Sequence record: NC_024783.1
DNA length: 44,332 nucleotides
Source of the DNA: Escherichia phage EK99P-1
Reading direction: 5' to 3' (one strand)
Shown here: positions 5,081 through 36,806 of the stretch, piece by piece
How the letters are laid out: each line of letters begins with the position of its first letter
Position numbering within the stretch: position 1 is the stretch's first letter
The notes under the pieces: model-generated
The model's input: only the letters and a program-made list of their open reading frames with translations
What the model was told of the DNA's origin: nothing
The model's database searches: none
Program-made: the position numbers and the translations under genes

Positions 5081-5843
5081 AGCGCGGAATACCGCAGATT
5101 TCGTTTAACGTCTTCACGTCCAGTGCCACCGCCGTGGACTTCGGCTTGTCCGGGTATGGAATAAACTGTTCCACTTCAGGCCACGCCTTGATCAGCTTCT
5201 TATCGGTATTGTGCATATCCAGCACGCCGGTCACAGTCAGCTTGAATGCGTCATACTTCGCACGCAACTCGCGGCGGGCCTTGTCGTTACGGTCCAGGCG
5301 CTTGCAGAAATCATGGTCCGCCGGGTAGTCTATACGACCGCATGACTTATATATCGGCAGCGCTTTCCCATCCTCGTCCACTTCGCACACAGAAGCCAGC
5401 ATTACTTCTTCGTACCCTGGTACAATATCGCCGAGATCTGGAGATAGCGTATTCATGTATTTATATTCCCAGTATCCGCGATGTACTCGGTATTGTCGTC
5501 CGTCACCGCTCAATGACAGTGTGCGCACATTTCCGCCCGCGTTGATTTCGAAAGTGGCGTCGTAAACGCTGCCGATGCCTTTTGGGCGGTCAGCATTATA
5601 TCTATACGTCGCCTTGTTGGTGTATACGCTTACTCCGTACATCTGCGACGGGTCATCGCCGATTGCTTTAATGCGCGCGAGTAGCTCGGCGAAAGTGCGA
5701 ATGCCTTCCGGCATACAGTCCAGCGTAATGGCGTACGCCAGGTCGCGCGAGTCCATCATGATGGATTTGGCTTCGGTCGCGATTTCATGGTCGCGCAGGA
5801 TGTTAGCCAGAATCTGGTTTTTAATGTCTTTCGTCAGTCTCAT
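5079..5843 (-). CDS. hypothetical protein (minus-strand moron in head module)
   Basis: 254 aa from the ATG at 5843 (RBS AAAGAGGA). Opposite strand to all flanking structural genes. No family recognised by eye. Confidence 0.6.
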   Translation of the reverse strand: MRLTKDIKNQILANILRDHEIATEAKSIMMDSRDLAYAITLDCMPEGIRTFAELLARIKAIGDDPSQMYGVSVYTNKATYRYNADRPKGIGSVYDATFEINAGGNVRTLSLSGDGRQYRVHRGYWEYKYMNTLSPDLGDIVPGYEEVMLASVCEVDEDGKALPIYKSCGRIDYPADHDFCKRLDRNDKARRELRAKYDAFKLTVTGVLDMHNTDKKLIKAWPEVEQFIPYPDKPKSTAVALDVKTLNEICGIPR

Positions 5844-5857: not shown

Positions 5858-6019
5858 TTAGTGGTTGTATAATTCGCCGCGTGCGTCGGCATCTTCCATT
5901 TGGTGTAGTGCGTGTTTCTGGTCCTGGCAAGGAATCCAGCGTTCCTCTAATTTATGCCAGAAGTAAAACACCCCGTTATCCAGCTTAATCTCGGCAATAC
6001 CGTTATTGAAAGTTAGCAT
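5858..6019 (-). CDS. hypothetical small protein (first gene of moron)
   Basis: 53 aa from the internal ATG at 6019 with RBS GAGGG, immediately downstream of a promoter-like element. Confidence 0.45.
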   Translation of the reverse strand: MLTFNNGIAEIKLDNGVFYFWHKLEERWIPCQDQKHALHQMEDADARGELYNH

Positions 6020-6036: not shown

Positions 6037-6078
6037 TTGGTATGCAACCAATATACTGCAACCAATCCACCAATGCAA
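6037..6078 (-). promoter_or_regulatory. sigma70-like promoter for the moron, with downstream palindrome
   Basis: Minus strand: -35 TTGCAT (6073-6078), 17-nt spacer, -10 TATATT (6050-6055), then TTGGT-tgcat-ACCAA (6037-6051). Contains two ATTGGTTGCA boxes. Confidence 0.45.
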
Positions 6079-6168
6079 GCAAATTTTGCGATTATTTTTA
6101 TCGCTGATAATATTAGAAGCGTGAAGTCGAGCGGGTGGCCTGCTCTGCCACAATCCCAGGGGGATAGC

Positions 6169-11640: not shown

Positions 11641-11956
11641 CGAAGCGGGACAGGCGGGAAGTACCGTTTTGTCCCGCCTCTGTAAAACCGCATATCTAAT
11701 CACTTTCATTGCATAAACTCAAAGCGGGACAGGCGGGACGTCCCGTTTTGTCACGCCCTGTAAATGTGCATACCTATGCAGATTTCGTGCATAAACCAAA
11801 CGGGACAGAAAGCGGGACAAACAAGAGGCGGGACAAAGCGGGACAGCACCCCGTCCCAGCCAGTGCTGCCGCGGTTTTCAGCCGATCGGGACAGCGGGAC
11901 AGCACCCCAGTCTTTCAGACTAGACGGGGGTCAGTGGCCCCCCTCGTCTGAGACTG
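11641..11956 (+). repeat. GCGGGACA iteron region with terminal long hairpin (copy A, extended)
   Basis: About 10 GGGAC(A) units on one strand, several short GGGAC..GTCCC palindromes. The last 169 bp (11788-11956) are repeated at 39166-39334. Confidence 0.8.
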
Positions 11957-12024
11957 AATAAGGTTTGTTTTGAAATCGCTGATACAATATCCATCGGCAA
12001 CTGCATAAAAAAGGGGACTGCATA

Positions 12025-22128: not shown

Positions 22129-22157
22129 AGTATTACACCGCTCAGCCAGGATTGCAA
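22129..22157 (-). promoter_or_regulatory. putative promoter for the lipoprotein-RBP operon
   Basis: Minus strand: ATTGGTTGCAA box with TTGCAA as -35, 17-nt spacer, weak -10 AATACT. Confidence 0.35.
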
Positions 22158-22178
22158 CCAATTTATGAGGATTCAGCT

Positions 22179-23840
22179 ATGGCAGCGGGTACACTATCCG
22201 TAACGAATAACAGCAAGGCGGTTGCCGGGGTAGGCACGACGTTCACCGCGTTTAAAGCTGGCGACTTCTTAACGCTGGTGGTGGGGCAAGTCCCTTACAC
22301 TGTCGCGATTGCATCCGTAGAAAGCGATACCGCGCTTACGCTGGTGCTTCCGTTCGACGGTCCCACGGCAACCGGCCTTGCCTGGGATGGCGTTGCGCGC
22401 GATACCATGTCACTGGCGACGATGGGCGTTACCGTACAGGCCCAGAAAGCGTTGCGATTGATGATCGCCGATGAAAACAACTGGCGTGCGATCTTCGGAG
22501 ACGAAGAAGAAGTTACGGTAACGCTGCCGAACGGGCAGGTTATGCAGGGTATGTCGTGGGGCTACCTGTCGCGATTACTGAAGGAAGTTGACCCCGTTGA
22601 AATGCGCGACCTGCAACAACAAGCCGCCGCATCGGAAGCCGCCGCACTAGCATCACGTAACGAGGCTGAAGGATTCAAGAACGAGACGGCAGGCATTCGC
22701 GACGCCACCGATCAGATTAAGACGGATACGCAGGCAATCCACGACGCCACCAACGCCATCAAGACGCAAACCAACCAGATTAAGACAGATACTGGCGCTA
22801 TTCGCGACGAGGCCAACCAGATTAAGACGGATACCGGGGTTATTCGCGACGAGGCCAATACCGCGAAGATTGACGCGCAAACCGCCAGCACTGCCGCGCA
22901 GGGATTTCGCGATCAGGCCGAAGAATGGGCGCGAAGCGTAAACGCCGATAATCTGCTAACTAAAACCGGCAACCTGGCAGGCATTGCAGACGCTGCGGCA
23001 GCGCGCACCAATTTAGGCTTAGGTACTGTCGCCACGTTAAACACTGTTCCTGTCGCTAATGGCGGTACAGGTGCGACCACGGCTGCAGCAGCGCGCACCA
23101 ATTTAGGCTTAGGTACGACTCAGGTTGTATCTTTCGGGTCAGTGGCGTTGACTAACGTTGTTACGGGCGCTTACGCTAGCGGTTTTGGGGCAACCGTAGC
23201 TGGCGGCAGTTTTGGGGAACAGTATACCAACCCCACAGCAATTGCTGTAGATAGCACCGCTGTCGAAGGTTACATTACGTTAATGAGGGTTACAATACCC
23301 GGTGTGGGTAACCCGGGTGGCATGGACTGCTTCATGTACGCTAATGGTACGTCGTTCTTCAGAATAAATACCGGTGTTGCAAATTACGTGTTTAACAGTA
23401 CTGGGGTAGCCACCGCTACACAGTGGTCGAGTACATCTGACGAGCGAATCGAAGAGGATATTGCACGGATTGATAACCCGCTCGAAAAAATGAAGCGTAT
23501 CAAAGGTGTGTCATGGCGACTGAAGACAAACGGTAGTATCGGTCACGGTTTCATCGCTCAGGATGTGGAGCAAGATTTCCCTAGCGCTGTCAATCCGTTA
23601 CAAGATATGCAATTGTCCGACGGTAGTGTCGTAAAAAACGTCAAGTCTGTTGACACGTACGGCGTGGCCGCAGCTTTGCATCATGAAGCTATTCTCGCAC
23701 TCATGGCTAAAATAGAAGCACTGGAGGCCACCATGCGAGCGTTGCCGGATACGATGAAACAGGTGGAGGAGTTGAAAGCCGCACAAGCGGGCTTTCGTAA
23801 TATTCCTTTCCGTCCACTTCCACTAAGGGCCAATCGTTAA
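22179..23840 (+). CDS. side tail fibre with C-terminal intramolecular chaperone (peptidase S74-like) domain
   Basis: 553 aa from the ATG at 22179 (RBS GAGGA). Repeated IKTDT and AARTNLGLGT motifs. C-terminal DERIEEDI...KRIKGV...HGFIAQDVEQ...AILALMAKIEALE resembles the endosialidase-type chaperone. Confidence 0.7.
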   Translation: MAAGTLSVTNNSKAVAGVGTTFTAFKAGDFLTLVVGQVPYTVAIASVESDTALTLVLPFDGPTATGLAWDGVARDTMSLATMGVTVQAQKALRLMIADENNWRAIFGDEEEVTVTLPNGQVMQGMSWGYLSRLLKEVDPVEMRDLQQQAAASEAAALASRNEAEGFKNETAGIRDATDQIKTDTQAIHDATNAIKTQTNQIKTDTGAIRDEANQIKTDTGVIRDEANTAKIDAQTASTAAQGFRDQAEEWARSVNADNLLTKTGNLAGIADAAAARTNLGLGTVATLNTVPVANGGTGATTAAAARTNLGLGTTQVVSFGSVALTNVVTGAYASGFGATVAGGSFGEQYTNPTAIAVDSTAVEGYITLMRVTIPGVGNPGGMDCFMYANGTSFFRINTGVANYVFNSTGVATATQWSSTSDERIEEDIARIDNPLEKMKRIKGVSWRLKTNGSIGHGFIAQDVEQDFPSAVNPLQDMQLSDGSVVKNVKSVDTYGVAAALHHEAILALMAKIEALEATMRALPDTMKQVEELKAAQAGFRNIPFRPLPLRANR

Positions 23841-24324
23841 CAATCACGTACGGCTCAGCAATATCCTCAATCACGCCGTGCGCGCTATGTTGTCCGAAAT
23901 CTACGCCCACCAGGATAACCCCGGCAACGCGACGAGTGAGATACTCGCGAGCGCAACGAGCCTCTACCAGTCCGCGACGGATGCCGCTGGTGGCCTTAAC
24001 CTCATAGGTCCAGACGGCATCAATCATGTGTTCCCGGAAGTCGGGGCCGGACTTAACCTTGCGCTTACCGACCATGATAATATCGCCGCGGTCGATAGTG
24101 TTAGCACTAAACAGGCCGGTACGCATTAGCAAACCTTGCGGTATGCAACTACGCCCGCCCGCCTGCCCCTCAAGGTACATGCCCGCAAACATCTCGCCCA
24201 GCACACCGACAAGACGGCTTTGCTTGCACGCGTCAGACTTTAGGCGCCACTGGTCAAACTCTATGCTTGCGATCATTGCCGCCAGGTGGAATTGTTTACC
24301 GGATATTTCATATTCGCCGTACAT
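23707..24324 (-). CDS. hypothetical protein
   Basis: 205 aa, RBS GAGGA. The 3' end overlaps the tail fibre 3' end by 134 bp (convergent). Confidence 0.5.
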   Translation of the reverse strand: MYGEYEISGKQFHLAAMIASIEFDQWRLKSDACKQSRLVGVLGEMFAGMYLEGQAGGRSCIPQGLLMRTGLFSANTIDRGDIIMVGKRKVKSGPDFREHMIDAVWTYEVKATSGIRRGLVEARCAREYLTRRVAGVILVGVDFGQHSAHGVIEDIAEPYVIVNDWPLVEVDGKEYYESPLVRLSTPPPVSSYPATLAWWPPVLLF

Positions 24325-24366
24325 CGTGTGGTCCTCATTGATGCGGGCCGAAGCCCGCGATTAGAA

Positions 24367-24888
24367 TTATTTCAGTGCGCTACGTACCAGTGTTTTTTCC
24401 ATGTTACGGAAATCTTCCGGCGTCATGAGGATTTTGGACCCATCTTCGCCGGTGAGCACGACCATAGGCTGGACTTCTTGGTCTGCAATGCCGAAATTGG
24501 CGGCTTTTACAGTCTTACCCACCGATGCAGAAGGATTCCACGTCCCCGCGGTGGCGATGGGCCAACCTTTAAGGCTGTCGTATTGCGCTGCCGTTGTATC
24601 GACCTGAATCTCATCATGTACGGTCATGTAAGACTCGCCCAGCAGGGCGGCATACGCCACCAGATCCACGATGTTATCTTCCTGGTGCTTACGGTGCTGG
24701 CGCACCAGCTTCAGGCAGATCAGGAAGGTCCAGGCTTCTTGCTCGGTAAGGTCGCGACCGGTAAGCGCGTTAAACACGGCAGCGATTTGTTTAGCGCTGC
24801 GTTCTTCTTTCGCGTTGTCATAGCCGTTTTCTTTCCCGCGCTGTTCCATAGTGGTGGCGGCGTTTTTGCAGTATTCGTATGCTTTCAC
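24367..24888 (-). CDS. hypothetical protein, possible MazG-like all-alpha nucleotide pyrophosphohydrolase domain
   Basis: 173 aa, GTG start with RBS AAGGG. The pattern EQRGKENGYD...AWTFLICLKLVRQHRK...DNIVDLVAYAALLGE is suggestive only. Confidence 0.4.
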   Translation of the reverse strand: MKAYEYCKNAATTMEQRGKENGYDNAKEERSAKQIAAVFNALTGRDLTEQEAWTFLICLKLVRQHRKHQEDNIVDLVAYAALLGESYMTVHDEIQVDTTAAQYDSLKGWPIATAGTWNPSASVGKTVKAANFGIADQEVQPMVVLTGEDGSKILMTPEDFRNMEKTLVRSALK

Positions 24889-24935
24889 AGTATTGCCCTT
24901 TTTAGCGAGGGGGCGGTAATGCCCCCGACACGTTT

Positions 24936-24965
24936 ACTATAGTGCAACCAACCTATTGGTTGCAA
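24936..24965 (-). promoter_or_regulatory. putative promoter with palindromic box pair
   Basis: Minus strand: TTGCAA (-35), 18-nt spacer, TATAGT (-10). The perfect inverted repeat TGCAACCAA-cct-a-TTGGTTGCA spans the -35 and spacer. Confidence 0.45.
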
Positions 24966-25423
24966 GTGAATTTCGCAACATTTATCGCGTAAATTTTCGG
25001 GACCAAATCACCACACGCCCGACGAATTGCCGCGATGTTCTTCTCGCAATCTTCAATGATGACCAGTTCCGACACGTCCGCATAGCAGACCATTTTGAAC
25101 ACGGCGCACGCCTTAAACTCAGGCGGCGGGGTGTCGTCCAGCATGTGGCGCATAAACAACCGGCCTACCGGGAAGACCTCCAATTGCTCGGCGGTGGTGT
25201 CCCAGCATTCGCGCTGCCGGTTGGTCAGATACGCGATCTCGAAGCCTTGCTCTTTATACATGCGCAGTAGCGGCAGCATATCCATGTTCAGGTCTTCGCG
25301 GACGTGCGCCTTGTGCCACTTCGCCCAGAAGGTGGATTTAGTTTTTATGCCCGGCACCAGGTCGGCGCGCGCATCGCTTGACCCATTAATAACGCCATCC
25401 AGATCACAAATCAGTAATTTCAT
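24953..25423 (-). CDS. HAD-superfamily phosphatase / nucleotidase-like protein
   Basis: 156 aa. N-terminal LICDLDGV matches HAD motif I (DxDG). Confidence 0.6.
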   Translation of the reverse strand: MKLLICDLDGVINGSSDARADLVPGIKTKSTFWAKWHKAHVREDLNMDMLPLLRMYKEQGFEIAYLTNRQRECWDTTAEQLEVFPVGRLFMRHMLDDTPPPEFKACAVFKMVCYADVSELVIIEDCEKNIAAIRRACGDLVPKIYAINVAKFTCNQ

Positions 25424-25653
25424 TTCAATTCCTCAATAAGGGTGTATCGGGCGCTGCGCGCGGTGTAAGAGTTGCACACGAAATGACAACGTCGGGTAAT
25501 GACAAGCCACCCGGTAAGGTCCATACCCAGGAGGTGTTCAGGCCGTGACACGCGACGCACACGATCGCGGCGCGGGTCAATGTTATAGTCTTTTTGCATT
25601 TGGTCTACGACCGCGTGGTCGCGGTCAACGATTAAGATATTCATGTAGCTCAC
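25420..25653 (-). CDS. hypothetical protein
   Basis: 77 aa, overlapping junctions with both neighbours. Confidence 0.4.
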   Translation of the reverse strand: MSYMNILIVDRDHAVVDQMQKDYNIDPRRDRVRRVSRPEHLLGMDLTGWLVITRRCHFVCNSYTARSARYTLIEELK

Positions 25654-26110
25654 TCTCGCTCATTATTTCAATTTGTGCGCTGCCGCTGGGCGGCGCTTCG
25701 TCAAAGATTATCAACTGCTGGCACTTGTTATTGCTCGGCCCGACTTCACCGGTTACAGCGTGTATAAATCGGATACGCCAGTCCAGAAGAATTATCAGGT
25801 TTGCAGTCTTCCGGGCCAGCTTTGCCCACTTCGTCGACGTGTCCTGATTCAGCAGCATGACGGTCCGGCGTCCGTGCGCTGCGCACTTGACCCACGGCAG
25901 CGGATCGGAATACGGCGGGTTGCACCACTTCCACCCTTTCAACTCAGACCAGTCCGCATCGAGCGCGCTGTGCTCTGCCGTGAAGTAACGCGGTAGCAGG
26001 TGGTTGGTGTCGCTTGCCGCCATATCGTAACGGAATCGGTACTTACGGCGCAGCGGTTTAAATAAAGCTGGCGGCGTGCGCCAGCTATCTTTTTGCTCAC
26101 TCTTCTGCAT
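25625..26110 (-). CDS. DNA N6-adenine methyltransferase (small phage Dam type)
   Basis: 161 aa with WRTPPALF and catalytic NPPY motifs. Confidence 0.8.
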   Translation of the reverse strand: MQKSEQKDSWRTPPALFKPLRRKYRFRYDMAASDTNHLLPRYFTAEHSALDADWSELKGWKWCNPPYSDPLPWVKCAAHGRRTVMLLNQDTSTKWAKLARKTANLIILLDWRIRFIHAVTGEVGPSNNKCQQLIIFDEAPPSGSAQIEIMSESELHEYLNR

Positions 26111-26555
26111 GATCTGGATCTATCGCGTACAGGGCAATTTTCTTATTACTGTTTAGAACGCGTTGCACGCGCTTTGATTCCTCGGTGCCGAGTGGTCGGC
26201 AGTCGGAGTAGTAAGACCCGTTCCCTCGCCACGCAACCAGCACCAGGTCTTTCCGGTCAATCTTAGACTGGCGGCCCTTCGGACGCACGTACTCCTCGGC
26301 CCGTTTGCAATGTTCACGCAAACCATCGGCAGTGATGCGGTTTAGTGCAACGCTGGTGGTGTATCCGGTGCGCTGCATAATCCCCATCAATTCGAATAGC
26401 AGTTCGAAGCGCTCCTCTAGCTCCTGGCGCACTTTCTTCTCCCCTTCATATAGCGTCTGGTTGGTGTCCGCCAACGCGTTCGCACGTTCGGCCTGTTCGC
26501 GGGCTTCGAGGCATTGCGCGGCCCAGTAGTTTTTCTCTTCTTGTAAAATTTTCAT
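26097..26555 (-). CDS. hypothetical protein
   Basis: 152 aa, charged coiled-coil-like N-terminus. Confidence 0.45.
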   Translation of the reverse strand: MKILQEEKNYWAAQCLEAREQAERANALADTNQTLYEGEKKVRQELEERFELLFELMGIMQRTGYTTSVALNRITADGLREHCKRAEEYVRPKGRQSKIDRKDLVLVAWRGNGSYYSDCRPLGTEESKRVQRVLNSNKKIALYAIDPDHAEE

Positions 26556-26798
26556 TTATTTAAGCTCCGTTGTGCGAATCTCATCGCGAGGAATAAATTT
26601 GCCATCCATTTCAACCCAGCAGACACCGTATCGCCATTGTGTGTTACGGCCTGTTTGCTCGGGGTACACAGCCTCGCATTCGTAGCGTTCCGTGTAGTAA
26701 ACAGCTGCGGTAGGTACGCAAACACAAACGGCAATCATGAGGGTGAGGAGCACCCAAAATCTAAGGTCGCCGTCGTAGTCGAAAAATAATGATTTCAT
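26556..26798 (-). CDS. small membrane protein
   Basis: 80 aa from the ATG at 26798 (RBS GGAGACGG). One TM helix (FWVLLTLMIAVCVCVPTAAVYY). Confidence 0.45.
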   Translation of the reverse strand: MKSLFFDYDGDLRFWVLLTLMIAVCVCVPTAAVYYTERYECEAVYPEQTGRNTQWRYGVCWVEMDGKFIPRDEIRTTELK

Positions 26799-26844
26799 CT
26801 CACCGTCTCCAGGTATTAAAAAGGGCGTCCAACCGGACACCCTC

Positions 26845-26878
26845 AATATAATGCAACCAATATAATTACGCAACCAAT
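26845..26878 (-). promoter_or_regulatory. putative sigma70-like promoter with two boxes
   Basis: Minus strand: ATTGGTTGCGT (-35 TTGCGT), 17-nt spacer containing a second ATTGGTTGCA, -10 TATATT. Confidence 0.45.
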
Positions 26879-27202
26879 TTACGCATAAAAATTTGGGTCG
26901 CGCGCTACGTCTACCAGATACAGGTTACTAATGCGGTTGCCGTAGTGCCCAGGCGTGCGCTGGCGGCACACAACGGCGAATCCTGGGGGGATTGTATTGC
27001 CTGTCTCAATAATCCACGCCACGCGCGCGCCCGACAGCGTCTTGCCGTTGCACTCGATGCGCGTGCCGCCATCGGCAGTGTTAAGGTTGCCAATCTTGCA
27101 GCCTGTGGACTTCAGGCGAATGACGCCGGTCTTGCTGTCGTAGGAAAAAAGCTGATTGGTCATTGCCACTGAAAAGTCGATGGCTTCGAATGTAGTATTC
27201 AT
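26879..27202 (-). CDS. hypothetical protein (possible degenerate HNH/NUMOD-like fold)
   Basis: 107 aa. The C-terminal GHYGNRISNL is only weakly HNH-like. Confidence 0.35.
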   Translation of the reverse strand: MNTTFEAIDFSVAMTNQLFSYDSKTGVIRLKSTGCKIGNLNTADGGTRIECNGKTLSGARVAWIIETGNTIPPGFAVVCRQRTPGHYGNRISNLYLVDVARDPNFYA

Positions 27203-27909
27203 TTTAAATTTTCCTCGTTAACCGCTATCGCGAAGCCGCGCGGGGTGAGTGAGTGGATTAATTTTGTACGAGCGGATTTACCACCGAGGCGACTATACTG
27301 CTTCGAGTACCCTTTTTCAATGAAAACAGGTTTCTTCTCTGGCATACGGAAGCCGTTGCCGGTCCATAAGCAGGTCAGCTTCGGATATGAATCGCGGGCG
27401 TTGATGTATTCCGGGAAGAGCGGGTGTACGTCATCCTCCGGCAGATATCCCCCATACTCCCACGGGTTGAATGAGTGATCCGGCTTGCGCCACTGGGTGG
27501 AAAGCACACTGCGCGGATTCTCAATCATATATGGCACTTCGAAGAAGTCACCCAGGTAAGCGGCGATCTTCGCGGTGCGCACCGCCTTAAGCTGAAAGGC
27601 TGGGTCTTTAGCCCGCTTGCGCGGGAAAGCTGGCGCACCGCTCACTGCCAGATCCGTACACGGAGGGAATGCATAGATGATATCCGGCGTACCGAAATCG
27701 CCATTCATCGCGCGGTCTACAAAGTCCAGATCGATAAACTCATTGCGATACCGGATTCCGCGACCATAAATCCGGTAGTCAAGGTAAGACCCGTGATCGG
27801 CTTCGGAGTAGTTGAAGCAATAACACTTATGCCCCATCTCGGCAGCACGCTCAATCATCAAGCCGCTGCCGTCAAACAACGACCAGATTGTCATTTTAGC
27901 AATAGTCAT
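27199..27909 (-). CDS. C5-cytosine DNA methyltransferase-like protein (compact)
   Basis: 236 aa with LFDGSG (motif I-like), FPPC (motif IV-like catalytic Cys) and ENP (motif VI-like). Unusually short for a C5-MTase. Confidence 0.5.
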   Translation of the reverse strand: MTIAKMTIWSLFDGSGLMIERAAEMGHKCYCFNYSEADHGSYLDYRIYGRGIRYRNEFIDLDFVDRAMNGDFGTPDIIYAFPPCTDLAVSGAPAFPRKRAKDPAFQLKAVRTAKIAAYLGDFFEVPYMIENPRSVLSTQWRKPDHSFNPWEYGGYLPEDDVHPLFPEYINARDSYPKLTCLWTGNGFRMPEKKPVFIEKGYSKQYSRLGGKSARTKLIHSLTPRGFAIAVNEENLK

Positions 27910-29330
27910 TTGCGCGCCTTTTTAGCTTTCATGTATTCCATCAGGTCGTCCTGGATATCTCGCTTACTGTCGCGACGCTCGGCGACCAATTCATCCAGTG
28001 TCCCGCGCGCCTGGATAATGTAGACGAATACCGGTCGAGGGTGTCCGGCCTGCATCTGGCGAACCGGCCCGATACGTTCAACGATCTGCGAAAAGTGCTC
28101 AAAGTTCCAGGTATCGGAGAAGATTGCCAGGTGATGTCCGCCGTCCTGCAAGTTAAGGCCGTGGCCTGCCGATGCCGGGTGTGCAAACATGATGGGGATC
28201 TCGCCCCTGTTCCACGCTTCCATATCCTTATTGCCCTGCTTACCTTTACCCAACGCAACGCCGTGCGGAAATTTCTTCTTAAGACGTGCCAGGTCATGCT
28301 TATACTGATACGCAACGAGCAACGGCGCGCCGTTCAACTCCTCCACGATACTTTCCAGCGCGTCCAGTTTGGCGTCGTGAATCTTCACCCACTCGTCGGT
28401 CCGTTCGCCGTCTTCGTCCACCTTATACACAGCGCCGGAAGCAAGCTGAAGGCACTTAATTGTCTTCGATGCCGCGTTCGCCGCTTCCACTGTTCCGCTT
28501 TCCAGTTCGGCAAATAGCTCGCTTTCAAACTGGTCGTAAATCTTGCGGGCTTTCTTCGGCAGGTCCACAACAACCGGCGTATAGATTGGCTTGTCGCACC
28601 CGAAGTATTCAGCCGCGTCAACGGTGAGGGATACATCTGACAGACGTTGTTGTATCTCTTTCTCGGAGTTCTTTAGCGGAGCGTGCTGCATAGTGAAGCT
28701 GCCAGGCTTAACAGGCTTGCTAATGAACCAGCGGTCGGTAAATGCCTTATAGCTACTGCCGAGGCGTTCGCCTCCGTCGACAAACCACGTCTGACCCCAT
28801 AAGTCTTTAAGCCCGTTTGGCGCTGGTGTGCCGGTAAGGTTAATCCAGCGCTTGACGTGTTTATGTGCAATCGCCGCCAGTGCGCGGGCGCGCTTGCTCC
28901 CCTGCTTGCTACGATAGCCTTTCAGCTTAGTCGATTCATCGGCAACAACGACCGTAAAGGGCCACGCATCGCCGTAATAGTCGACCAGCCACTCAACCAC
29001 ATCGTAGTTAACACAAACCACGTTAGCGTCGCTCTCCAGCGCTGCAATACGGTCCTTCTCCGGCCCGGTGCCGTCTACGACCAGCAGGGATGAGAACCGC
29101 CATTTCTCCTGTTCCGGGGGCCAGGTGCCGGATGCAACGCGCAGCGGGGCCAGCACCAGTACGCGGTCCTCCTGGTTTGACAGGATGCCAGTCTGGAACA
29201 TTTTATTCAGCGCCCACATTGTCGCGCCGGTTTTACCGGATCCCATTGTCGCCCATATATTGCATCGCTTATGCTTGAGGATGAACGCGGTTATCAACTT
29301 CTGATATTCGCGGCGTCGGAATCTTGCCAT
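27906..29330 (-). CDS. SNF2/DEAD-like helicase
   Basis: Walker A MGSGKTGA and DExx-like VVADEST. Start taken at the ATG at 29330 (RBS AAGGCGGA); the ORF-track start at 29420 is a GTG. Confidence 0.7.
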   Translation of the reverse strand: MARFRRREYQKLITAFILKHKRCNIWATMGSGKTGATMWALNKMFQTGILSNQEDRVLVLAPLRVASGTWPPEQEKWRFSSLLVVDGTGPEKDRIAALESDANVVCVNYDVVEWLVDYYGDAWPFTVVVADESTKLKGYRSKQGSKRARALAAIAHKHVKRWINLTGTPAPNGLKDLWGQTWFVDGGERLGSSYKAFTDRWFISKPVKPGSFTMQHAPLKNSEKEIQQRLSDVSLTVDAAEYFGCDKPIYTPVVVDLPKKARKIYDQFESELFAELESGTVEAANAASKTIKCLQLASGAVYKVDEDGERTDEWVKIHDAKLDALESIVEELNGAPLLVAYQYKHDLARLKKKFPHGVALGKGKQGNKDMEAWNRGEIPIMFAHPASAGHGLNLQDGGHHLAIFSDTWNFEHFSQIVERIGPVRQMQAGHPRPVFVYIIQARGTLDELVAERRDSKRDIQDDLMEYMKAKKARK

Positions 29331-29334
29331 GTCT

Positions 29335-29568
29335 TTATTCCGCCTTTTTCCAGACTTCTGTCTCACTGTTCCAGTTCCTTTTTGTGGCGTCGTAGTTGGT
29401 GGCGTGTCCGATGTGGACACCGGTAGCCCGGAAGCTCTTAAATTTTTGCCAGCACACCGTCAACGGCAGCGGATCATTCATGCCTGCGATAAACCATACG
29501 CGATCGCCCGGTTTACATTCGCCCAGCTTGGTTAGTCGGTAATGTTCTTTCATCGTCATGTCTCCCAA
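29335..29568 (-). CDS. hypothetical protein
   Basis: 77 aa, ends 4 nt before the helicase start. Confidence 0.4.
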   Translation of the reverse strand: MGDMTMKEHYRLTKLGECKPGDRVWFIAGMNDPLPLTVCWQKFKSFRATGVHIGHATNYDATKRNWNSETEVWKKAE

Positions 29569-29596
29569 AAATGGCGGGACAAGCCCGCCGTATTAA

Positions 29597-29770
29597 TTAT
29601 TTTTGTTCTGCACGGTAGCGGCGCTGCCGTTCACGCTCTTTCTTATTGCGGCATGATTTGCACTCGGCCCGATACCCGTCCGGGCTGCGCGCAGTCTTGC
29701 CAGTGTATTTGTGGAACTGGGATAGCGGTTTAACGCAGCCGCAATTACTACAACGTTTTTCTTCAATCAT
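29597..29770 (-). CDS. small zinc-ribbon protein (CxxC...CxxC)
   Basis: 57 aa from the ATG at 29770: MIEEKRCSNCGCVKPLSQFHKYTGKTARSPDGYRAECKSCRNKKERERQRRYRAEQK, four Cys and a basic tail. Confidence 0.45.
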   Translation of the reverse strand: MIEEKRCSNCGCVKPLSQFHKYTGKTARSPDGYRAECKSCRNKKERERQRRYRAEQK

Positions 29771-29801
29771 CTCTAAAATCCTCGATATGGCTAACCGGCA
29801 C

Positions 29802-29835
29802 ACTATACCGCTATGCGACCAATTCAGCAACCAAT
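29802..29835 (-). promoter_or_regulatory. putative sigma70-like promoter with two boxes
   Basis: Minus strand: ATTGGTTGCTG (-35 TTGCTG), 17-nt spacer containing ATTGGTCGCA, -10 TATAGT. Confidence 0.4.
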
Positions 29836-30089
29836 AAATCGCAGTCGGATATGTTGTCGATAACGCGAACGTCAGCACCGCGGCGGGCCATTCGCTCATG
29901 TTCACGTACCTGGTGCGGCTTCGGTTTTCCTCCGGGGCGCTTCACTTCGACGAAAACTATCTTGCCGTTGATGATGATAATCAGATCGGGCGCACCCGAG
30001 CGCCCCTCCCATGCCACTTTGCGGCAGAATCCGCCGACGGCTTTCACCCGTCTCATCAAGTGACTTTGAATCTTGCCTTCTGGTGTCAT
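29811..30089 (-). CDS. VRR-NUC domain nuclease
   Basis: 92 aa from the ATG at 30089 (overlaps the polymerase stop, TAATG). PD-(D/E)XK-like D...EVK core in GAPDLIIIINGKIVFVEVKRPGGKPKPHQ. Confidence 0.65.
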   Translation of the reverse strand: MTPEGKIQSHLMRRVKAVGGFCRKVAWEGRSGAPDLIIIINGKIVFVEVKRPGGKPKPHQVREHERMARRGADVRVIDNISDCDLLVAELVA

Positions 30090-32380
30090 TATTTCCTGTA
30101 CCTGTACATAATGTCGCCTTCCGCTGCAAGCGGGAAGCCTTTCGCCCAAACCGGCAGGTCGCACATCAGCGCGCACAACTCCTCGGTTGTGTAGTCGTCG
30201 GTATCCGGCACTTCGGTTATCAGTTCATCGTGTACGGACAGTACGATCTCATATCCCGCAGCTTCAACGCCAGGCATGGACCATGCGAGGATATCGCGAC
30301 ACAGCGCCTGCACGATGTTTTCCGTGAGTTTGCCGCCGTAGGTGTACTGGAATCCCCACTGGCGCGTCGTCTGATTCTCACCCTGATATTTAATGCGGGT
30401 GCTGGTGCGCTTCTTGCCGGTGTCTTCGTCGATCTCGGTCGTGACAGACAGCGCGATGCCGGGGTAGCTCATGATGCGCCCCGACGGTAACTCAATTTTC
30501 AACCACCACCCCGCGGCGTTCGGACCGTCGCGCTCCTCGTCGAAGGTTGGGTCATGCTTCGCCTTCGTGCGGACTATCTTGAGCGCTTTCTTACCATCCG
30601 GGCGAACGTTCGCGCCAGCCCAGTACGCTTTGCCCGGATTGCGGATCGCGCAGAGCACCGCGTCTTCCAGTTCGGCCCAAAATGCTACCGTCTTCGGGTG
30701 CGACTCACGCCACATACGTTTGATCGCATCACACGTCAGCCATACGTTTTTCGGCAGTATATAAGTTGGGCGCTCGTCTTTCTTGCCAGGCTTCGGCGGG
30801 CGCTTAGCTTCGTTAATGCGGGCGTATTCATATCCACGTTTCGCTGCTGCCCAAATGTGATCGGGGAATGTGCCCTTCATGACGTCCGCCATCGCGTAAA
30901 GGTCGAGGCCCAGGTTTTTAGCGAACTGCAAGAACGCGGCAACGCCACCTCCATAGCCCAACCCCAATTCGCACGCCTTACCAATCTGGCGCAAGTCTTT
31001 GCGGTTGGCTTTAATGTATTCCGGGTCGAGGCCGAACATTTTACCGGCAGTCTCACAATAAATATCGCGACCGGCCCTAAATACCATTAGCGCGGTTTTC
31101 TCGCCAGCGATCCAGGCGAGGCCGCGCCCTTCCACGTTGGAGTAGTCCGCTACGACAAACTTCTTGCCCTTCGCCGGAATAATGCACCCGCGAACGGTCG
31201 AGGCCGTTAGCTTCGATATGTCATATGCCCAGTGCGCTGTCCCGCGTAACAGGGAGTTGATGCCGTTGGTGAGCATGTGCGACCGCACCCAAAAGGATAT
31301 ATCGCTCTCGCCTTCACGGCGTTTAATCTTCCCTTCGTGGTCGTCGCTATACTCGCCGCGTGCCAGGTTTTGAGGCTGGAATCCTTTACCGGCCCAGCGT
31401 AGCGTGCGCTTTGCGCCACCATACTGAAGACACCCACGGCGGCGACCATCGGCGGATAGGCCGTTAACGAGCGGATTGTACTTAGTCGATGCCGTTGATG
31501 ACGCACCGAGGCGCATTTCGATAAGCGCTTTGCCTTCGTCGGGGAAATCCGGGTCTTCAAGCAGGTCGTTAAGTGTGGATTTCTGCGCGTTGTGGATCGT
31601 GAACGCCGGGGCGATATCACGCAGGATTGGCAGGAAGTCATTGCCGGTCAGCTTACCGCCAAATCGCTCCCAGGCTTCTTCCTTCAATTCTTCCTTATGC
31701 GCCTGCACCGCTTTGATCGCGGCGTTCGCCAGGTCAACGTCCACATAGAAGCCGCGGTCGTTGATCAACTGGTCGATATGTAGGATTTCATCTTCCTTCG
31801 GAGTATTACCCCAGTCCGGTATGCGCCAGTAGACTTCACGCATTGCGATAATATCCAGCGCGGCATAGCGCAGAAATTTGGCCCATTCTTCCGGGTGAGT
31901 CTCGCGAGTGTAGCGGCGTATTTTGTAGGTCTTAGGGGTAGGCTTACAGAATCGTTTAATCAGCGCCTTGCCTGCCTTATCCTTCGCGTGCTCTGCGTCA
32001 ACGCCCAGCACCTGGCACTGCATATCGAGGCTACCCGGCAGCGCGTGGCGAAAGGCCATAATCATGGTGTCTTCGATCTGGCTTACCGGCAGGTCGATGC
32101 CCCACTTCTCACGGATAACCAGGCGGTCAAACAGGAGGCCGTTAGCCATCACTATTTTTGCTTTCTTGCGGGATACATGGCGGAGCGCCTTGCGCAGTTC
32201 ACGCGGCATTGTGGGGGATTCAGTGCAATCCCATGTCTGCACGCGGCCTTCGTCGATGGCGTAGGTGCAAATCATAATCTCGGTAGTTGGGTGTTCCGCG
32301 TAGGCGTATGCGCCCACTTTCTTCAGATCCACCCCGCTAAATGTCTCGGTATCGAGGAAAAGTCGTTCGAAGTCTTTCAT
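30089..32380 (-). CDS. family A DNA polymerase with 3'-5' exonuclease domain
   Basis: 763 aa. Exo I LFLDTETFS, motif A DYSNVEGR, motif B RQIGKACELGLGYGGG, motif C VHDE. Confidence 0.9.
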   Translation of the reverse strand: MKDFERLFLDTETFSGVDLKKVGAYAYAEHPTTEIMICTYAIDEGRVQTWDCTESPTMPRELRKALRHVSRKKAKIVMANGLLFDRLVIREKWGIDLPVSQIEDTMIMAFRHALPGSLDMQCQVLGVDAEHAKDKAGKALIKRFCKPTPKTYKIRRYTRETHPEEWAKFLRYAALDIIAMREVYWRIPDWGNTPKEDEILHIDQLINDRGFYVDVDLANAAIKAVQAHKEELKEEAWERFGGKLTGNDFLPILRDIAPAFTIHNAQKSTLNDLLEDPDFPDEGKALIEMRLGASSTASTKYNPLVNGLSADGRRRGCLQYGGAKRTLRWAGKGFQPQNLARGEYSDDHEGKIKRREGESDISFWVRSHMLTNGINSLLRGTAHWAYDISKLTASTVRGCIIPAKGKKFVVADYSNVEGRGLAWIAGEKTALMVFRAGRDIYCETAGKMFGLDPEYIKANRKDLRQIGKACELGLGYGGGVAAFLQFAKNLGLDLYAMADVMKGTFPDHIWAAAKRGYEYARINEAKRPPKPGKKDERPTYILPKNVWLTCDAIKRMWRESHPKTVAFWAELEDAVLCAIRNPGKAYWAGANVRPDGKKALKIVRTKAKHDPTFDEERDGPNAAGWWLKIELPSGRIMSYPGIALSVTTEIDEDTGKKRTSTRIKYQGENQTTRQWGFQYTYGGKLTENIVQALCRDILAWSMPGVEAAGYEIVLSVHDELITEVPDTDDYTTEELCALMCDLPVWAKGFPLAAEGDIMYRYRK

Positions 32381-32547
32381 TGCTTAATCCTCACTACGGC
32401 GTCAGCGCTGCCGATCATAGAGAAGATACCGTCGGAAAGGGTTATCTCCTCGCCGTTGTTGCGAACCTCGGCAACGGTGAAATATTCCCCCAGCAATTTG
32501 GACCATACCTGCATTCCGACTTTTACTTCGCTGGCTTTAATGCGCAT
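32377..32547 (-). CDS. hypothetical small protein, translationally coupled to the polymerase gene
   Basis: 56 aa (MRIKASEVKVGMQVW...), RBS AGGA, stop overlaps the polymerase ATG (ATGA). Below the ORF-track length cutoff. Confidence 0.4.
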   Translation of the reverse strand: MRIKASEVKVGMQVWSKLLGEYFTVAEVRNNGEEITLSDGIFSMIGSADAVVRIKQ

Positions 32548-32561
32548 TTTTCATTGTCCTA

Positions 32562-32586
32562 TTAAAAAGCCCGCACTAAGCGGGCT
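32562..32586 (-). terminator. rho-independent terminator (minus strand)
   Basis: On the minus strand AGCCCGC-ttagt-GCGGGCT followed by TTTTTAAT. Confidence 0.55.
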
Positions 32587-32605
32587 TGAATAGTGGGCTT
32601 TGCCC

Positions 32606-33331
32606 TTAACGGCGGCGACGTTTACGCGGTGCTTTGTCTTCGTCGTCGTCGTCCTCATCTTCGTCATCGCGTGGCTTACGACGTTTACGAGGTTTTTTAT
32701 CTTCATCATCGTCATCGCGACGTTTTGACTTTTTGGACTTGCGCGGCTTGTCATCTTCATCATCGTCGCCCAGGTCCTCGTCTGAGCAAGAAGACCCGCC
32801 ACCTCCGAAGGCTTCGCCGTCTTCACGGAATCGCAGACCCAGCAAGCCAGCCCCGAGGCCCTTGCCGTTGGTATTGTTCCATGCCCAAATATCAAGGGAC
32901 ACGTTGCAATAACAACCGGAGTAGATCTCCTGGCCTTCAATCTCGTCGCCTTCTACGGTCAGACCTTGTTCAGTCTGCTTCTCGCCGAGTGACGTTTGAA
33001 TGATAGGCTGTTTGAACGATTTGGCGTTGATATACAACATGCCTTCGAATTCTTCTGTCACTTCGTCGCGCTCGTCACCGTCGCGAACTGCGCATTCCTT
33101 AGAATCCTGGGCGTAGTGGCGGTCCATCCACTTATCGGCATTCTTCTCGGATTTCAGCTTATCGGTGAGCACTGCGCGCGCTGCCGCTTCCACTTTGTCC
33201 ACCTGCGGATCTTCTTTATCCAGAAGAATCACGGCACGGTATGCCGGTTTTTGTCCATCCTGTTTAGGGGTATCACGTTCCCAGATTTTCAGGAAGCATA
33301 CGCGCACATTTTTCAGGTTGACTTTAGCCAT
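32606..33331 (-). CDS. ssDNA-binding-like protein (DUF2815-like) with hyper-charged C-terminal tail
   Basis: Start taken at the ATG at 33331 (MAKVNLKNV, RBS GAGGA). C-terminal ~60 aa alternate D/E blocks with K/R blocks. Confidence 0.5.
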   Translation of the reverse strand: MAKVNLKNVRVCFLKIWERDTPKQDGQKPAYRAVILLDKEDPQVDKVEAAARAVLTDKLKSEKNADKWMDRHYAQDSKECAVRDGDERDEVTEEFEGMLYINAKSFKQPIIQTSLGEKQTEQGLTVEGDEIEGQEIYSGCYCNVSLDIWAWNNTNGKGLGAGLLGLRFREDGEAFGGGGSSCSDEDLGDDDEDDKPRKSKKSKRRDDDDEDKKPRKRRKPRDDEDEDDDDEDKAPRKRRRR

Positions 33332-33421
33332 TTTCCAATTCCTCATTTTCACATGTATCGGGGTTATTGGAAGCCACCCCGTTCGGCTTGGTTGCTAATC
33401 TACTTGGTTGCGCCTGAGCGG

Positions 33422-33664
33422 TCAAGCATTTTCGTTAAAAAGATTTCGGGTAACGTAGTTGGTAGCGTTATCGATCCAGCTTAACGGCGGGCGGTCGATG
33501 TTCTTCTTCACCCAGTCGACGGCAGCGTCACTATACCCGTCATCAAGCCAGCGGGTTGGATGGCGAATCATCCACGCCACCATTAACACGCCTTGCACGC
33601 AATGCAGGATAAAGCCCAGCGCGCCGAGCAAAAACATCAATAAGATTGCGAATACTTTATTCAT
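33422..33664 (-). CDS. small membrane protein
   Basis: 80 aa with two hydrophobic helices (ILLMFLLGALGFIL, GVLMVAWMI). Confidence 0.45.
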   Translation of the reverse strand: MNKVFAILLMFLLGALGFILHCVQGVLMVAWMIRHPTRWLDDGYSDAAVDWVKKNIDRPPLSWIDNATNYVTRNLFNENA

Positions 33665-35087: not shown

Positions 35088-35275
35088 TATTCCACCCTTG
35101 AAAACTGAGCAATGTAATATTCATGTTTAACCCCAGCCCGCTTCGCGGCTTCGTTCATGGTAGCCGCCAAACCTCTGGCTTGAGTCCAGCAGCAATTCCA
35201 GTTCTGATTCATAACGATTTCCGGTTGCTCATCGCCGGTAATACGGCAACGAAATAAAACAAAGAATATAGCCAT
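35087..35275 (-). CDS. hypothetical protein
   Basis: 62 aa, adjacent to the exonuclease gene. Confidence 0.35.
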   Translation of the reverse strand: MAIFFVLFRCRITGDEQPEIVMNQNWNCCWTQARGLAATMNEAAKRAGVKHEYYIAQFSRVE

Positions 35276-35527
35276 TTATTTTGTCTCCCAGCGGTCAATT
35301 GTTTTTGCTTCGGATGCAACTGCGAAGCGAACATATTCCAGATTGGAATCCGCCCAAATATAAAAGTCGGGGTTAGTAAAGGTGGTGCGCTTAATTTGCG
35401 CGGGGGTGTTACGGCGTTTATCTATTACGGCAACGCGTGACTGAAAGCTGCCGATGCGTTCGAATAGCCAATAGTACGGGCGCTGGTCGCGGGAGTCCAC
35501 CGCCTCGATTAGCGTGAAGCGTGCCAT
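35276..35527 (-). CDS. hypothetical protein
   Basis: 83 aa, RBS GAGGA. Confidence 0.45.
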   Translation of the reverse strand: MARFTLIEAVDSRDQRPYYWLFERIGSFQSRVAVIDKRRNTPAQIKRTTFTNPDFYIWADSNLEYVRFAVASEAKTIDRWETK

Positions 35528-35540
35528 TGTCTCGTCCTCT

Positions 35541-35567
35541 AAAAAGAGGCCCGCAGATTAGCGGGCC
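35541..35567 (-). terminator. rho-independent terminator after the first early-left gene
   Basis: On the minus strand GGCCCGC-taatct-GCGGGCC followed by TCTTTTT. Confidence 0.55.
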
Positions 35568-35575
35568 GGATAATA

Positions 35576-36061
35576 TTAATCTTCCAGTTCGAAATAAGTT
35601 TCGACGATTTCTTTAAGTTCTGTGTGGAAGTCTTCGACGTCTTCATCTTCCAGCTTGGCGATTGATTTGATCTCGAACGATTCCAGCAGGTCGTCAAATT
35701 CGTCGTTCGCGTCGTCGTCGTCACCACCAGCGATAATAGCGGCATATTGTTTGATTTCGTCGCGCATCTCAGCCAGCGGATCGGCATCTTTCTTGCCTTT
35801 GCCTTTCGCCGGGGCTTTTTTACCCTTAGCTGGTTTTACGTCATCAGCGTCATCGTCGTCGTCATCTTCTACGACTTCTTTTTTGGCTTTCGCCGGAGCT
35901 TCGTCGTCAGCGTCGTCATCTTCTACGACTTCTTTTTTCGCCTTAGACGGCTTCTTGTCTTCCTGCTTGCCAACGGCAGCGCCAACGGTTTCATAATGCT
36001 TAGCGATGGTTTCCAGTGCTACTACGCCGCGAGTAATCAGGTTTACGATTTGTTCAAACAT
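35576..36061 (-). CDS. highly acidic repeat protein (possible DNA mimic / anti-restriction candidate)
   Basis: 161 aa, runs of D/E, internal duplication AKKEVVEDDDADDEAPAK / AKKEVVEDDDDDDADDVKPAK. First gene downstream of the leftward early promoter. Confidence 0.5.
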   Translation of the reverse strand: MFEQIVNLITRGVVALETIAKHYETVGAAVGKQEDKKPSKAKKEVVEDDDADDEAPAKAKKEVVEDDDDDDADDVKPAKGKKAPAKGKGKKDADPLAEMRDEIKQYAAIIAGGDDDDANDEFDDLLESFEIKSIAKLEDEDVEDFHTELKEIVETYFELED

Positions 36062-36796: not shown

Positions 36797-36806
36797 GGCT
36801 ACGACC

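Follow-up and report, generated by a model that had tools for sequence, protein, structure and literature searches.

A short asymmetric box in three fixed registers at candidate promoters of Escherichia phage EK99P-1: a probable dispersed protein-binding site shared with related virulent siphophages

Background

Short sites through which one protein acts on many phage operons are known from phage P1, whose C1 operators are 17 bp long, belong to a temperate immunity system and have a known binder. Iterons can likewise double as operators of the initiators that bind them, as they do for plasmid Rep proteins, for the P4 alpha protein (at ori and crr) and for SV40 T antigen. A different arrangement is the MotA box of phage T4, which occurs at one position (about -30) and in one orientation and which requires both MotA and AsiA. 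Mycobacteriophage L5 is temperate, its gp71 protein being the immunity repressor, and its 'stoperators' act in one orientation within transcribed DNA; the gp71 operators and stoperators are said to go back to work by Brown and colleagues in 1997. The virulent T1-like phage TLS carries a 21-nt direct repeat (aaATAGCACnnnTTGnTAAAA) that is dispersed over about 20 intergenic places (PMC11447400). Here a recurrent 10-mer, termed the box, is analyzed within the genome of Escherichia phage EK99P-1 (NC_024783.1), where it is embedded in the cores of ten candidate promoters.

The window (i.e., the whole stretch of DNA analyzed) is the complete 44,332-bp genome of this HK578-like virulent siphophage of the genus Dhillonvirus (IMG/VR record UViG_2706795331_000001), and shares about 92% identity with phages that include PEC9 and Oekolampad. 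Dhillonviruses are among the coliphages most commonly isolated, and are found in the BASEL collection and among therapy candidates; the searchable literature yielded no account of their gene regulation. Based on gene annotation carried over from phage WFI by mapping, the window contains a structural arm on the plus strand (77-20882), a replication and modification arm on the minus strand (23779-36061), and a further plus-strand arm (36467-44278) encoding, in order, a 109-aa helix-turn-helix (HTH) protein, a helicase-primase, a noncoding stretch termed region B, small genes, lysis genes and an HTH-phosphoesterase. The relatives WFI, SO-1 and Ioannina have no annotated integrase or CI-type repressor, and neither was found among the window proteins scanned. 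In three relatives no phage RNA polymerase or sigma factor is annotated either, and the box does not qualify as a PHIRE-type phage-polymerase promoter; the 109-aa protein gives the only sigma-like match, through its isolated region-4-like HTH, and this match falls below family cut-offs.

An over-represented and mostly intergenic box

The box is the 10-mer ATTGGTTGCA, with core TTGGTYGC and general form (A/G)TTGGTYGCA. It is the most over-represented 10-mer of the window (9 exact copies versus 0.12 expected; z = 25.9) and is also the top 10-mer in WFI and SO-1. When up to one mismatch is allowed, both strands together contain 18 matches, versus 3.25 ± 1.70 in dinucleotide shuffles, where the maximum was 9. 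The core TTGGT[TC]GC occurs 24 times: 17 copies lie within intergenic DNA, which constitutes 7.9% of the genome (binomial p = 3.5e-14); three others (24956, 29815 and 29827) lie in the final codons of a gene that immediately precedes a promoter; and four (16698, 27982, 40039 and 42076) are truly intragenic. A frequency matrix revealed no conservation past (A)TTGGTTGC(A). One intragenic copy, which has no promoter context, is an exact box and is possibly a chance copy or an orphan:

40038 to 40047, minus strand: exact box inside gene 39851-40120.

These counts bear out a first-pass annotation of the window, which had reported a recurrent intergenic box, had named shuffled sequences as the control that could refute it, and had given coordinates that prove correct to within 1 nt. 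Its list of copies holds for the positions that it gives and omits two others, at 39083-39092 and 39118-39127; the two exact boxes that it placed at about 6043-6066 are joined by a degenerate third, TTTGCTTGCA, at 6073-6082; and the copies that it listed near 33387 and 33403 are present, each reading CTTGGTTGC(T/G) with two mismatches. Its further claim that boxes mark most transcription-unit boundaries is an overstatement: among gaps of at least 35 nt, boxes occur in 8 of 17 within the non-structural arm (20.9-44.3 kb) and in 1 of 10 within the structural arm, or in about 9 of 27 overall. A lone TTGGTCGC core at 10896, which lies within the structural arm and outside of the latter count, is probably due to chance.

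Three registers relative to the -10 hexamer

Every box was oriented and good downstream -10 hexamers were sought, with the offset defined as the number of nucleotides from the first box base to the start of the -10. Three sharp registers emerge: offsets of -3, 11 and 28 are represented by 3, 4 and 3 boxes in the window, versus 0.05 expected per offset, and by 5, 9 and 8 boxes in three other Dhillonviruses, versus 0.15 expected. At offset 28 the box occupies positions -40 to -31, with its TTGCAN half in the -35 position; at offset 11 it occupies -23 to -14, ending 1 nt before the -10; and at offset -3 it occupies -9 to +1, the sequence TATATTGGTTGCAyACCAAC spanning the start site. The candidate promoters (P1 to P10) and their boxes are as follows.

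6043 to 6052, minus strand: P1 box, exact; overlaps the 3' end of the -10 and +1, offset -3; context TATATTGGTTGCAtACCAAC.
6057 to 6066, minus strand: P1 box, exact; in the spacer, ending 1 nt before the -10 TATATT (6055-6050), offset 11.
6073 to 6082, minus strand: P1 degenerate box TTTGCTTGCA; TTGCAT (6078-6073) is the -35, 17 bp from TATATT.
22153 to 22162, minus strand: P2 box, exact; TTGCAA is the -35, 16-17 bp from TAATAC/AATACT; lipoprotein and DUF6453 genes downstream.
24943 to 24952, minus strand: P3 box GTTGGTTGCA; in the spacer, abutting the -10 TATAGT (24941-24936), offset 11.
24955 to 24964, plus strand: P3 inverted box, exact; its palindromic TTGCAA (24965-24960, minus strand) is the -35, 18 bp from TATAGT.
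26852 to 26861, minus strand: P4 box, exact; abuts the -10 TATATT (26850-26845), offset 11.
26869 to 26878, minus strand: P4 box ATTGGTTGCG; TTGCGT (26873-26868) is the -35, 17 bp from TATATT, offset 28.
29814 to 29823, minus strand: P5 box ATTGGTCGCA; in the spacer, offset 16; overlaps the last codons of the VRR-NUC gene.
29826 to 29835, minus strand: P5 box ATTGGTTGCT; TTGCTG (29830-29825) is the -35, 17 bp from TATAGT (29807-29802).
33387 to 33396, plus strand: P6 inverted box CTTGGTTGCT; directly downstream of the -10 of the minus-strand promoter TTGACC(33425-33420)-17-TAGATT(33402-33397).
33403 to 33412, plus strand: P6 inverted box CTTGGTTGCG; in the spacer, directly upstream of the -10.
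36267 to 36276, plus strand: P7 inverted box, exact; in the spacer of the leftward early promoter TTGACT(36288-36283)-17-TAATAT(36265-36260), 1 nt from the -10.
39072 to 39550, plus strand: region B, 479 bp of noncoding DNA immediately 3' of the helicase-primase gene; contains the next five boxes, P8 and P9.
39083 to 39092, plus strand: P8 upstream box ATTGGTTGCC, in region B.
39118 to 39127, plus strand: P8 box ATTGGTTGCC; 12 nt before a perfect TATAAT (39140-39145), offset 22.
39398 to 39407, minus strand: orphan inverted box ATTGGTTGCC, inside region B.
39489 to 39498, plus strand: P9 box, exact; TTGCAT (39494-39499) is the -35, 17 bp from TATATT (39517-39522).
39520 to 39529, plus strand: P9 box, exact; overlaps the -10 and +1, offset -3; TATATTGGTTGCAcACCAAC context as at P1; gene 39551-39841 follows.
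42725 to 42734, minus strand: P10 inverted box GTTGGTTGCA; in the spacer of the plus-strand promoter TTTACT(42719-42724)-18-TATACT(42743-42748).
42748 to 42757, minus strand: P10 inverted box ATTGGTCGCA; overlaps the last -10 base and +1; gene 42777-43004 follows.

At least two boxes occur in 8 of the 10 promoters, and at least one box lies between the -35 and +1 in 9 of the 10. Registers are combined in various ways: 28 with 11 (26852-26878), 27 with 11 and -3 (6043-6082), 28 with -3 (39489-39529), 28 with 16 (29814-29835), and an inverted -35 with 11 (24943-24964). The three promoters with a -35 of their own (TTGACC-17-TAGATT, TTGACT-17-TAATAT and TTTACT-18-TATACT) have inverted boxes around the -10. 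Because TATA is palindromic, a composite 'box-n-TATA' can be read as a -10 on either strand; the strand that is used is set by the flanking -35.

The box is thus short and asymmetric, occurs in either orientation and usually in pairs, and its promoters drive non-structural genes. P1, for instance, serves a 53-aa open reading frame (6019-5858) and then the Nmad5 gene (5843-5082), and P5 serves the gene of a 57-aa basic zinc-ribbon protein (29770-29597) and the SNF2 helicase unit. The 53-aa reading frame (5858-6019, minus strand; MLTFNNGIAEIKLDNGVFYFWHK...) has a strong GAGGG ribosome-binding site and is unannotated in WFI and SO-1. At P4, a hairpin resembling an intrinsic terminator (GGGTGTCCggttGGACGCCC followed by TTTTT; 26822-26850) starts 1-2 nt past the -10; transcripts started at P4 would lack the 5' arm of this hairpin and therefore escape termination, and read-through from upstream would stop there. 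A similar packing of promoter and hairpin is seen at 24915-24935 and at 33355-33385.

Alternative sigma factors were considered, and neither sigma54 nor other alternative-sigma geometries matched on inspection. A function of the boxes at the RNA level was likewise set aside: transcripts are expected to start downstream of the boxes at offsets 28 and 11, Rfam returned no match and no tRNA was found.

Selection on copies outside the -35 position

Since TTGCA resembles a -35 hexamer, the box might be a promoter element and nothing else, that is, an extended -35 (ATTGG + TTGCAN) read by host sigma70, with the additional copies being decoy or tandem -35s or leftovers. In four forward boxes, one degenerate box and one inverted box, TTGC(A/G/T)N does lie 17-18 bp upstream of a TATAnT; a TTGCA-type -35 together with a TATAGT-type -10 is the general promoter style of the supergroup; and the proteins that might bind the box are candidates only. 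About two thirds of the boxes, however, are inverted or are in registers in which a -35 could not work (11, 16, 22 or -3), and these are conserved as well as the -35 copies are. A -35 hexamer would be expected 16-18 bp upstream of the -10 and in the transcribed orientation, which describes only about 5-6 of roughly 20 intergenic boxes; the remainder have offsets of 11, 16, 22 or -3 or else are inverted. By inspection, the boxes in spacers or at +1 have no usable -10 at 16-18 bp downstream, and the three promoters with inverted boxes around the -10 have better -35s of their own.

The genus itself provides further evidence. For a -35 one copy would be enough and the flanks would be free to vary, yet the TTGG half is invariant across the genus. 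When the ten promoter regions were aligned with those of WFI, SO-1 and the roughly 77%-identical Ioannina, the boxes and the -10 hexamers were found to be invariant, while the bases between them vary. Moreover, Ioannina has independently gained a second box at P2, exactly at offset 11, and has a third box in its P8 region. This invariance and these gains indicate that the copies outside the -35 position are under selection, which is the main argument, drawn from aligned sequences, against a pure -35 reading. In addition, promoters of the form TTGCA-N17/18-TATAGT that have no TTGG extension are common in all parts of the supergroup, box-less genomes among them, so that the box is more than a -35; and a one-base variant found in relatives (TTGGCTG; see below) has no -35-like half. 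Hence a purely promoter-based explanation is considered unlikely.

At the level of sequence, then, the box is a selected cis-element, conserved across genera, that is present in region B and, in three fixed registers, within about ten sigma70-type promoters. It is probably a dispersed, asymmetric protein-binding site (an operator or iteron) whose occupancy would control these promoters, most simply by occlusion. The first-pass annotation had left the choice between a -35 element and a factor-binding site. The second option is the better supported, because the -35 accounts for a minority of copies, because the other copies are equally selected and because TTGCA -35s occur without TTGG. Its count of at least six loci with a -35, a spacer of about 17 bp and a TATAnT holds for four forward boxes (22153, 26869, 29826 and 39489), the remainder being the degenerate box at 6073 and the inverted one at 24955. 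Its remark that the geometry at 33388 and 42724 is not that of a sigma70 promoter is wrong in detail, as each of these boxes overlaps a good sigma70-like promoter on the opposite strand.

Distribution beyond the genus

Outside of Dhillonvirus, two phages show strong enrichment of the core together with the same architecture: Edwardsiella phage eiAU (23 copies of the form GTTGGTTGCA) and Klebsiella phage VLCpiS11a (13 copies of the form aTGTTGGTTGCa). Eiauvirus eiAU and VLCpiS11a share their replication module with Dhillonvirus. Boxes occur at offsets -4 and 28 in eiAU and at offset 28 in VLCpiS11a; position 1 of the box is an A in Dhillonvirus and a G in eiAU and VLCpiS11a. Only 1-3 copies of the core are found in each of Salmonella phages SP-031 and SE1, Enterobacter phage phiEap-2 and E. 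coli phage LotteLoewe. SP-031, SE1 and phiEap-2 instead carry a one-base variant, aTGTTGGCTGy, which is concentrated just 3' of the helicase-primase gene beside a TGAATAGTTATGCA block; two copies of this variant fall within a conserved coding 'QPT' at the end of that gene. In the examined relatives bearing either the box or the variant, one or the other adjoins the 3' end of the helicase-primase gene next to the TGAATAGTTATGCA block.

This distribution bears on the possibility that the reader of the box is a host protein, conserved in Enterobacterales, which the phages exploit to time or condition early transcription or origin firing. Such a protein would fit with a 9-bp core that does not differ among phages of Escherichia, Sodalis, Klebsiella and Edwardsiella despite their limited nucleotide similarity, and with the finding of no common small phage regulator. 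Relatives with the same or similar hosts, on the other hand, either lack the box (E. coli phage LotteLoewe) or carry a one-base variant of it: Klebsiella phage VLCpiS11a and phiEap-2, whose host is recorded as Enterobacter aerogenes, differ in this way. Different variants in phages of such closely related hosts favor a phage-encoded, co-evolving reader over a host factor, and the preference at position 1 is also specific to the genus. We know of no E. coli transcription-factor motif that fits the box, as judged by inspection rather than by a database comparison; and a literature search with the box sequence returned primers only, no description of the box being found in the searchable literature. 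A host reader is thus the least probable of the readings weighed here.

Candidate binding proteins

Three proteins encoded by the window are candidate binders.

36807 to 39071, plus strand: helicase-primase, 754 aa; AAA_25 domain at residues 357-531.
36467 to 36796, plus strand: 109-aa protein with a C-terminal HTH resembling sigma-70/ECF region 4; candidate binder.
29597 to 29770, minus strand: 57-aa protein with a CxxC...CxxC zinc ribbon and a very basic tail; weak candidate binder.

The C-terminal ~70 residues (~665-735) of the helicase-primase show a winged-helix sequence pattern and are modeled as a winged helix (pLDDT of ~80 locally, with an overall mean of 67). All of the top Foldseek hits to this domain are MarR, ArsR, H1 or ORC winged helices, none of them significant (E ≥ 0.15). 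This predicted winged helix is the sole DNA-binding domain found that is common to all box-bearing lineages. Residues ~665-754 (38800-39071) consist of the probable winged helix followed by an acidic tail (ATDDDLKD), a layout that recalls origin-binding domains and polymerase-docking tails. One specific form of the protein-binding reading, which is possible though doubtful, is that the box is a helicase-primase site recognized through this modeled winged helix, with iterons having been copied into about ten promoter cores in Dhillonvirus, Eiauvirus and some Guernseyvirinae. Differences in how the box pairs are spaced and oriented would be tolerated by a hexamer whose six winged helices are on flexible tethers. 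The initiator would then gate transcription directly or, conversely, would load at many sites through promoter opening. Covariation of helicase-primase residues with the T or C form of the box proved uninformative, as the C-box phages are a single clade in which every protein has similar fixed differences.

The 109-aa protein matches HTH_23 and Sigma70_r4_2 of Pfam and sigma70-ECF region 4 of NCBIfam. If the box were its operator, then it might compete, in a Cro-like manner, with sigma region 4 at TTGCA and occlude the -10/+1 region, thereby shutting off early and middle transcription. It is the sole small dedicated HTH protein found; its gene heads the rightward early operon, in the place of a Cro/C1-type HTH gene in related genera; and Dhillonvirus differs from those genera both in box position 1 (A versus G) and in the regulator. 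Its homologues were found in Dhillonvirus contigs only, however, and neither eiAU nor VLCpiS11a, which have the same box and architecture, encodes one. The Cro-type recognition helices of eiAU and VLCpiS11a also differ from each other without any pattern that fits the T and C box variants. Finally, the candidate promoter of the 109-aa gene itself (36408-36436) has no box, which is unexpected for an autoregulated repressor. It is therefore quite improbable that the 109-aa protein is the reader of the box. Upstream of the helicase-primase gene there has been a non-orthologous replacement: the 109-aa HTH protein of Dhillonvirus stands where eiAU and all of the Guernseyvirinae examined encode a Cro/C1-type HTH protein of ~70 aa (the loci compared being L004 7664-7900, L005 11098-11313 and L006 24258-24467). 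A syntenic small HTH protein as universal binder was rejected, inasmuch as the 109-aa protein is not homologous to the Cro-type proteins, whose recognition helices do not track the box variants.

The gene of the 57-aa zinc-ribbon protein is the first after a two-box promoter both in the window (P5) and in VLCpiS11a; in eiAU two boxes lie upstream of gp21, and the zinc-ribbon homologue lies further downstream within the same transcription unit as gp21. Other proteins were set aside. The Nmad5 protein (5082-5843) occurs in box-positive and not in box-negative outgroups, and was excluded since SO-1 has 21 boxes and no Nmad5. A Dam-type N6-adenine methyltransferase (PF05869; 25625-26110, minus strand) is present in 6 of 6 box-bearing genomes (from three clades) and in 0 of 4 genomes lacking the T box; the box contains no GATC, the sample is too small, and the association may be a coincidence. 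The first gene of the leftward early operon (35576-36061, minus strand) encodes a highly acidic, low-complexity 161-aa protein conserved in 8 of 8 related genomes; being rich in D and E and of low complexity, it is not a DNA binder, and could instead be a DNA mimic or host-takeover factor. The ~190-nt leader of this operon includes a ~55-nt block (CTCACGGTTGGGAATCCTGACACTTCGATCCGGCCCCTGCGTTGCCCCTCTCC; 36172-36228) that is near-identical in the T1-like Warwickvirus swan01 and that also has matches in phages of Serratia and Salmonella, in every case within unannotated DNA; Rfam gave no match to this block, which contains no tRNA and folds no better than shuffles. At the right end of the window (43136-44278), a 380-aa 'DNA repair exonuclease' (metallophosphoesterase) has an N-terminal HTH-like segment (TVKEIAKKYGIALRNVYMRKARL); LotteLoewe has a homologue of it, and eiAU and VLCpiS11a have none.

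Overall, the candidates are ranked with the winged helix of the helicase-primase first, as a tentative choice, followed by the 109-aa protein, then by another phage protein and then by a host factor.

Several points weigh against a protein-binding site in general and against these binders in particular. The proteins named are candidates only; the copies at offset 28 could be explained by direct sigma70 reading alone; and the searchable literature contains no transcription-start or expression data for any Dhillonvirus. The winged-helix model of the helicase-primase is of only moderate confidence, as judged by its mean pLDDT and by a best Foldseek E-value of 0.15, and its putative recognition-helix residues vary among lineages that have the same box. 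The candidate promoter of the operon encoding the HTH protein and the helicase-primase (TTGACA-17-TAGTTT at 36408-36436, picked by eye) is without a box. To our knowledge, it is unusual in phages for a helicase to regulate promoters. The 109-aa HTH protein, for its part, is missing from two phages with the same box, as noted above.

Region B and the origin question

Region B is a putative origin or priming region. Besides its five boxes, P8 and P9, it contains the TGAATAGTTATGCA block (39147-39160) that is conserved across genera and a ~170-nt block of GGGACA repeats and hairpins. The latter occurs twice in the window, in direct orientation and with ~92% identity, at 11788-11957 and at 39166-39335 (within 'region A' and 'region B' as annotated in SO-1). 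It contains GGGACA repeats (AGCGGGACA, the second most over-represented word of the genome) as well as GC-rich hairpins, such as GGGGCGGGAC...GTCCCGCCCC. In region B this block lies just downstream of P8, which reads into it; the block could serve either as an origin primed by transcription or as a single-strand initiation (primase) site, or could specify a noncoding RNA. A short word, (C)TGCATAAA, recurs around the block in regions A and B (at 11709, 11780, 12003, 12017, 39163 and 39335).

With five boxes within 479 bp, region B presents the cluster of repeats beside an initiator gene that is typical of iterons, and eiAU has seven boxes within ~290 bp just 3' of its helicase-primase gene. Iterons would also be confined to the origin and regularly spaced, whereas three quarters of the box copies are at promoters elsewhere and the spacing within region B is irregular (35, 280, 91 and 31 bp). 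Repeats in the 'region B' of LotteLoewe turned out to be ordinary promoters and were uninformative.

IMG/VR was scanned for two boxes within 25 nt of each other, a search that is conditioned on the motif and for which about 70 chance matches were estimated. The matches consist of Dhillonvirus-like contigs and of unrelated contigs with TTGGTTGCA arrays beside Prim-Pol/DUF3987 or DnaG-type primase genes (L020, L045 and L104); the unrelated contigs have no detectable protein similarity to the window. Tandem or inverted TTGGTTGCA arrays are located at L020 7740-7990, L045 4539-4620, L127 3310-3390 and L114 4845-4990; in two cases they directly follow primase-helicase genes of other families, and in L020 forward and inverted boxes flank an AT-rich core. 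These arrays look like origin iterons and may be due to chance convergence; they are a lead rather than evidence.

Proposed mechanism and significance

If the box is indeed a protein-binding site, then a sequence-specific DNA-binding protein, most likely phage-encoded, would recognize it. At about a third of the copies, the TTGCA half doubles as the -35, so that the factor would either contend with RNA polymerase for this DNA or share it; at the other copies, either in the spacer beside the -10 or at the -10/+1 junction, the bound protein would occlude RNA polymerase or hold it in place. Overall, the early and middle units and the origin-region promoter would be controlled in a coordinated way, in the simplest case by shut-off or feedback. 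Should the helicase-primase be the reader, the boxes would be origin iterons that have spread into promoters and that couple transcription to the replication initiator.

The box provides ten candidate promoters with exact coordinates and one shared control element, which makes the early-to-late program of these phages testable, and it offers a handle for engineering phage timing or portable regulated promoters. Its conservation, with one-base lineage variants, across genera infecting Escherichia, Klebsiella, Edwardsiella, Salmonella and Enterobacter points to an unrecognized regulator or initiator module in a large group of small virulent siphophages.

Comparison with known systems

The closest described systems are the L5 gp71 and P1 C1 operators, initiator iterons that double as operators, and the TLS/T1 repeats, none of which fits fully. 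The window has the hallmarks of dispersed operators, namely a short asymmetric site that is present in more than 10 copies, is mostly intergenic (17 of 24 cores) and overlaps promoters; the integrase and CI-type repressor that accompany operators of the L5 and P1 type in temperate immunity were not found among the window proteins scanned. The gp71 sites of L5 resemble the box in being short and asymmetric, in occurring in tens of copies that are mostly intergenic, in containing a -35-like hexamer and in overlapping early promoters; unlike L5, the window phage is virulent and has no known repressor, and its boxes occur in both orientations and in three fixed registers within promoter cores. The P1 C1 operators similarly comprise more than 10 dispersed asymmetric sites that serve many operons, and some P1 pairs overlap or are inverted; they differ from the box in their 17-bp length, in their sequence and in their role in temperate immunity.

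The MotA box shares with the box described here the property of being a phage-specific 9-10-bp element that replaces or overlaps the -35 while the sigma70 -10 is kept. The box departs from it in having three registers and both orientations, and no Pfam or PHROG match to MotA or AsiA was found among the ~36 proteins scanned. The box resembles iterons that double as operators in that short repeats are clustered beside an initiator or helicase-primase gene and that further copies overlap promoters; unlike such iterons, most copies of the box are outside of the origin-like region, at about ten promoters, and no clear tandem array is present in the window, whereas eiAU has one. If the helicase-primase does read the box in this virulent siphophage supergroup, then the logic of an initiator serving as a transcription gate would be similar to that of SV40 T antigen. 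The TLS repeat differs from the box in sequence and length; the two phages are alike in being virulent siphophages that rely on the host RNA polymerase, that have few canonical sigma70 promoters and that carry a phage-specific repeat in about 20 intergenic places.

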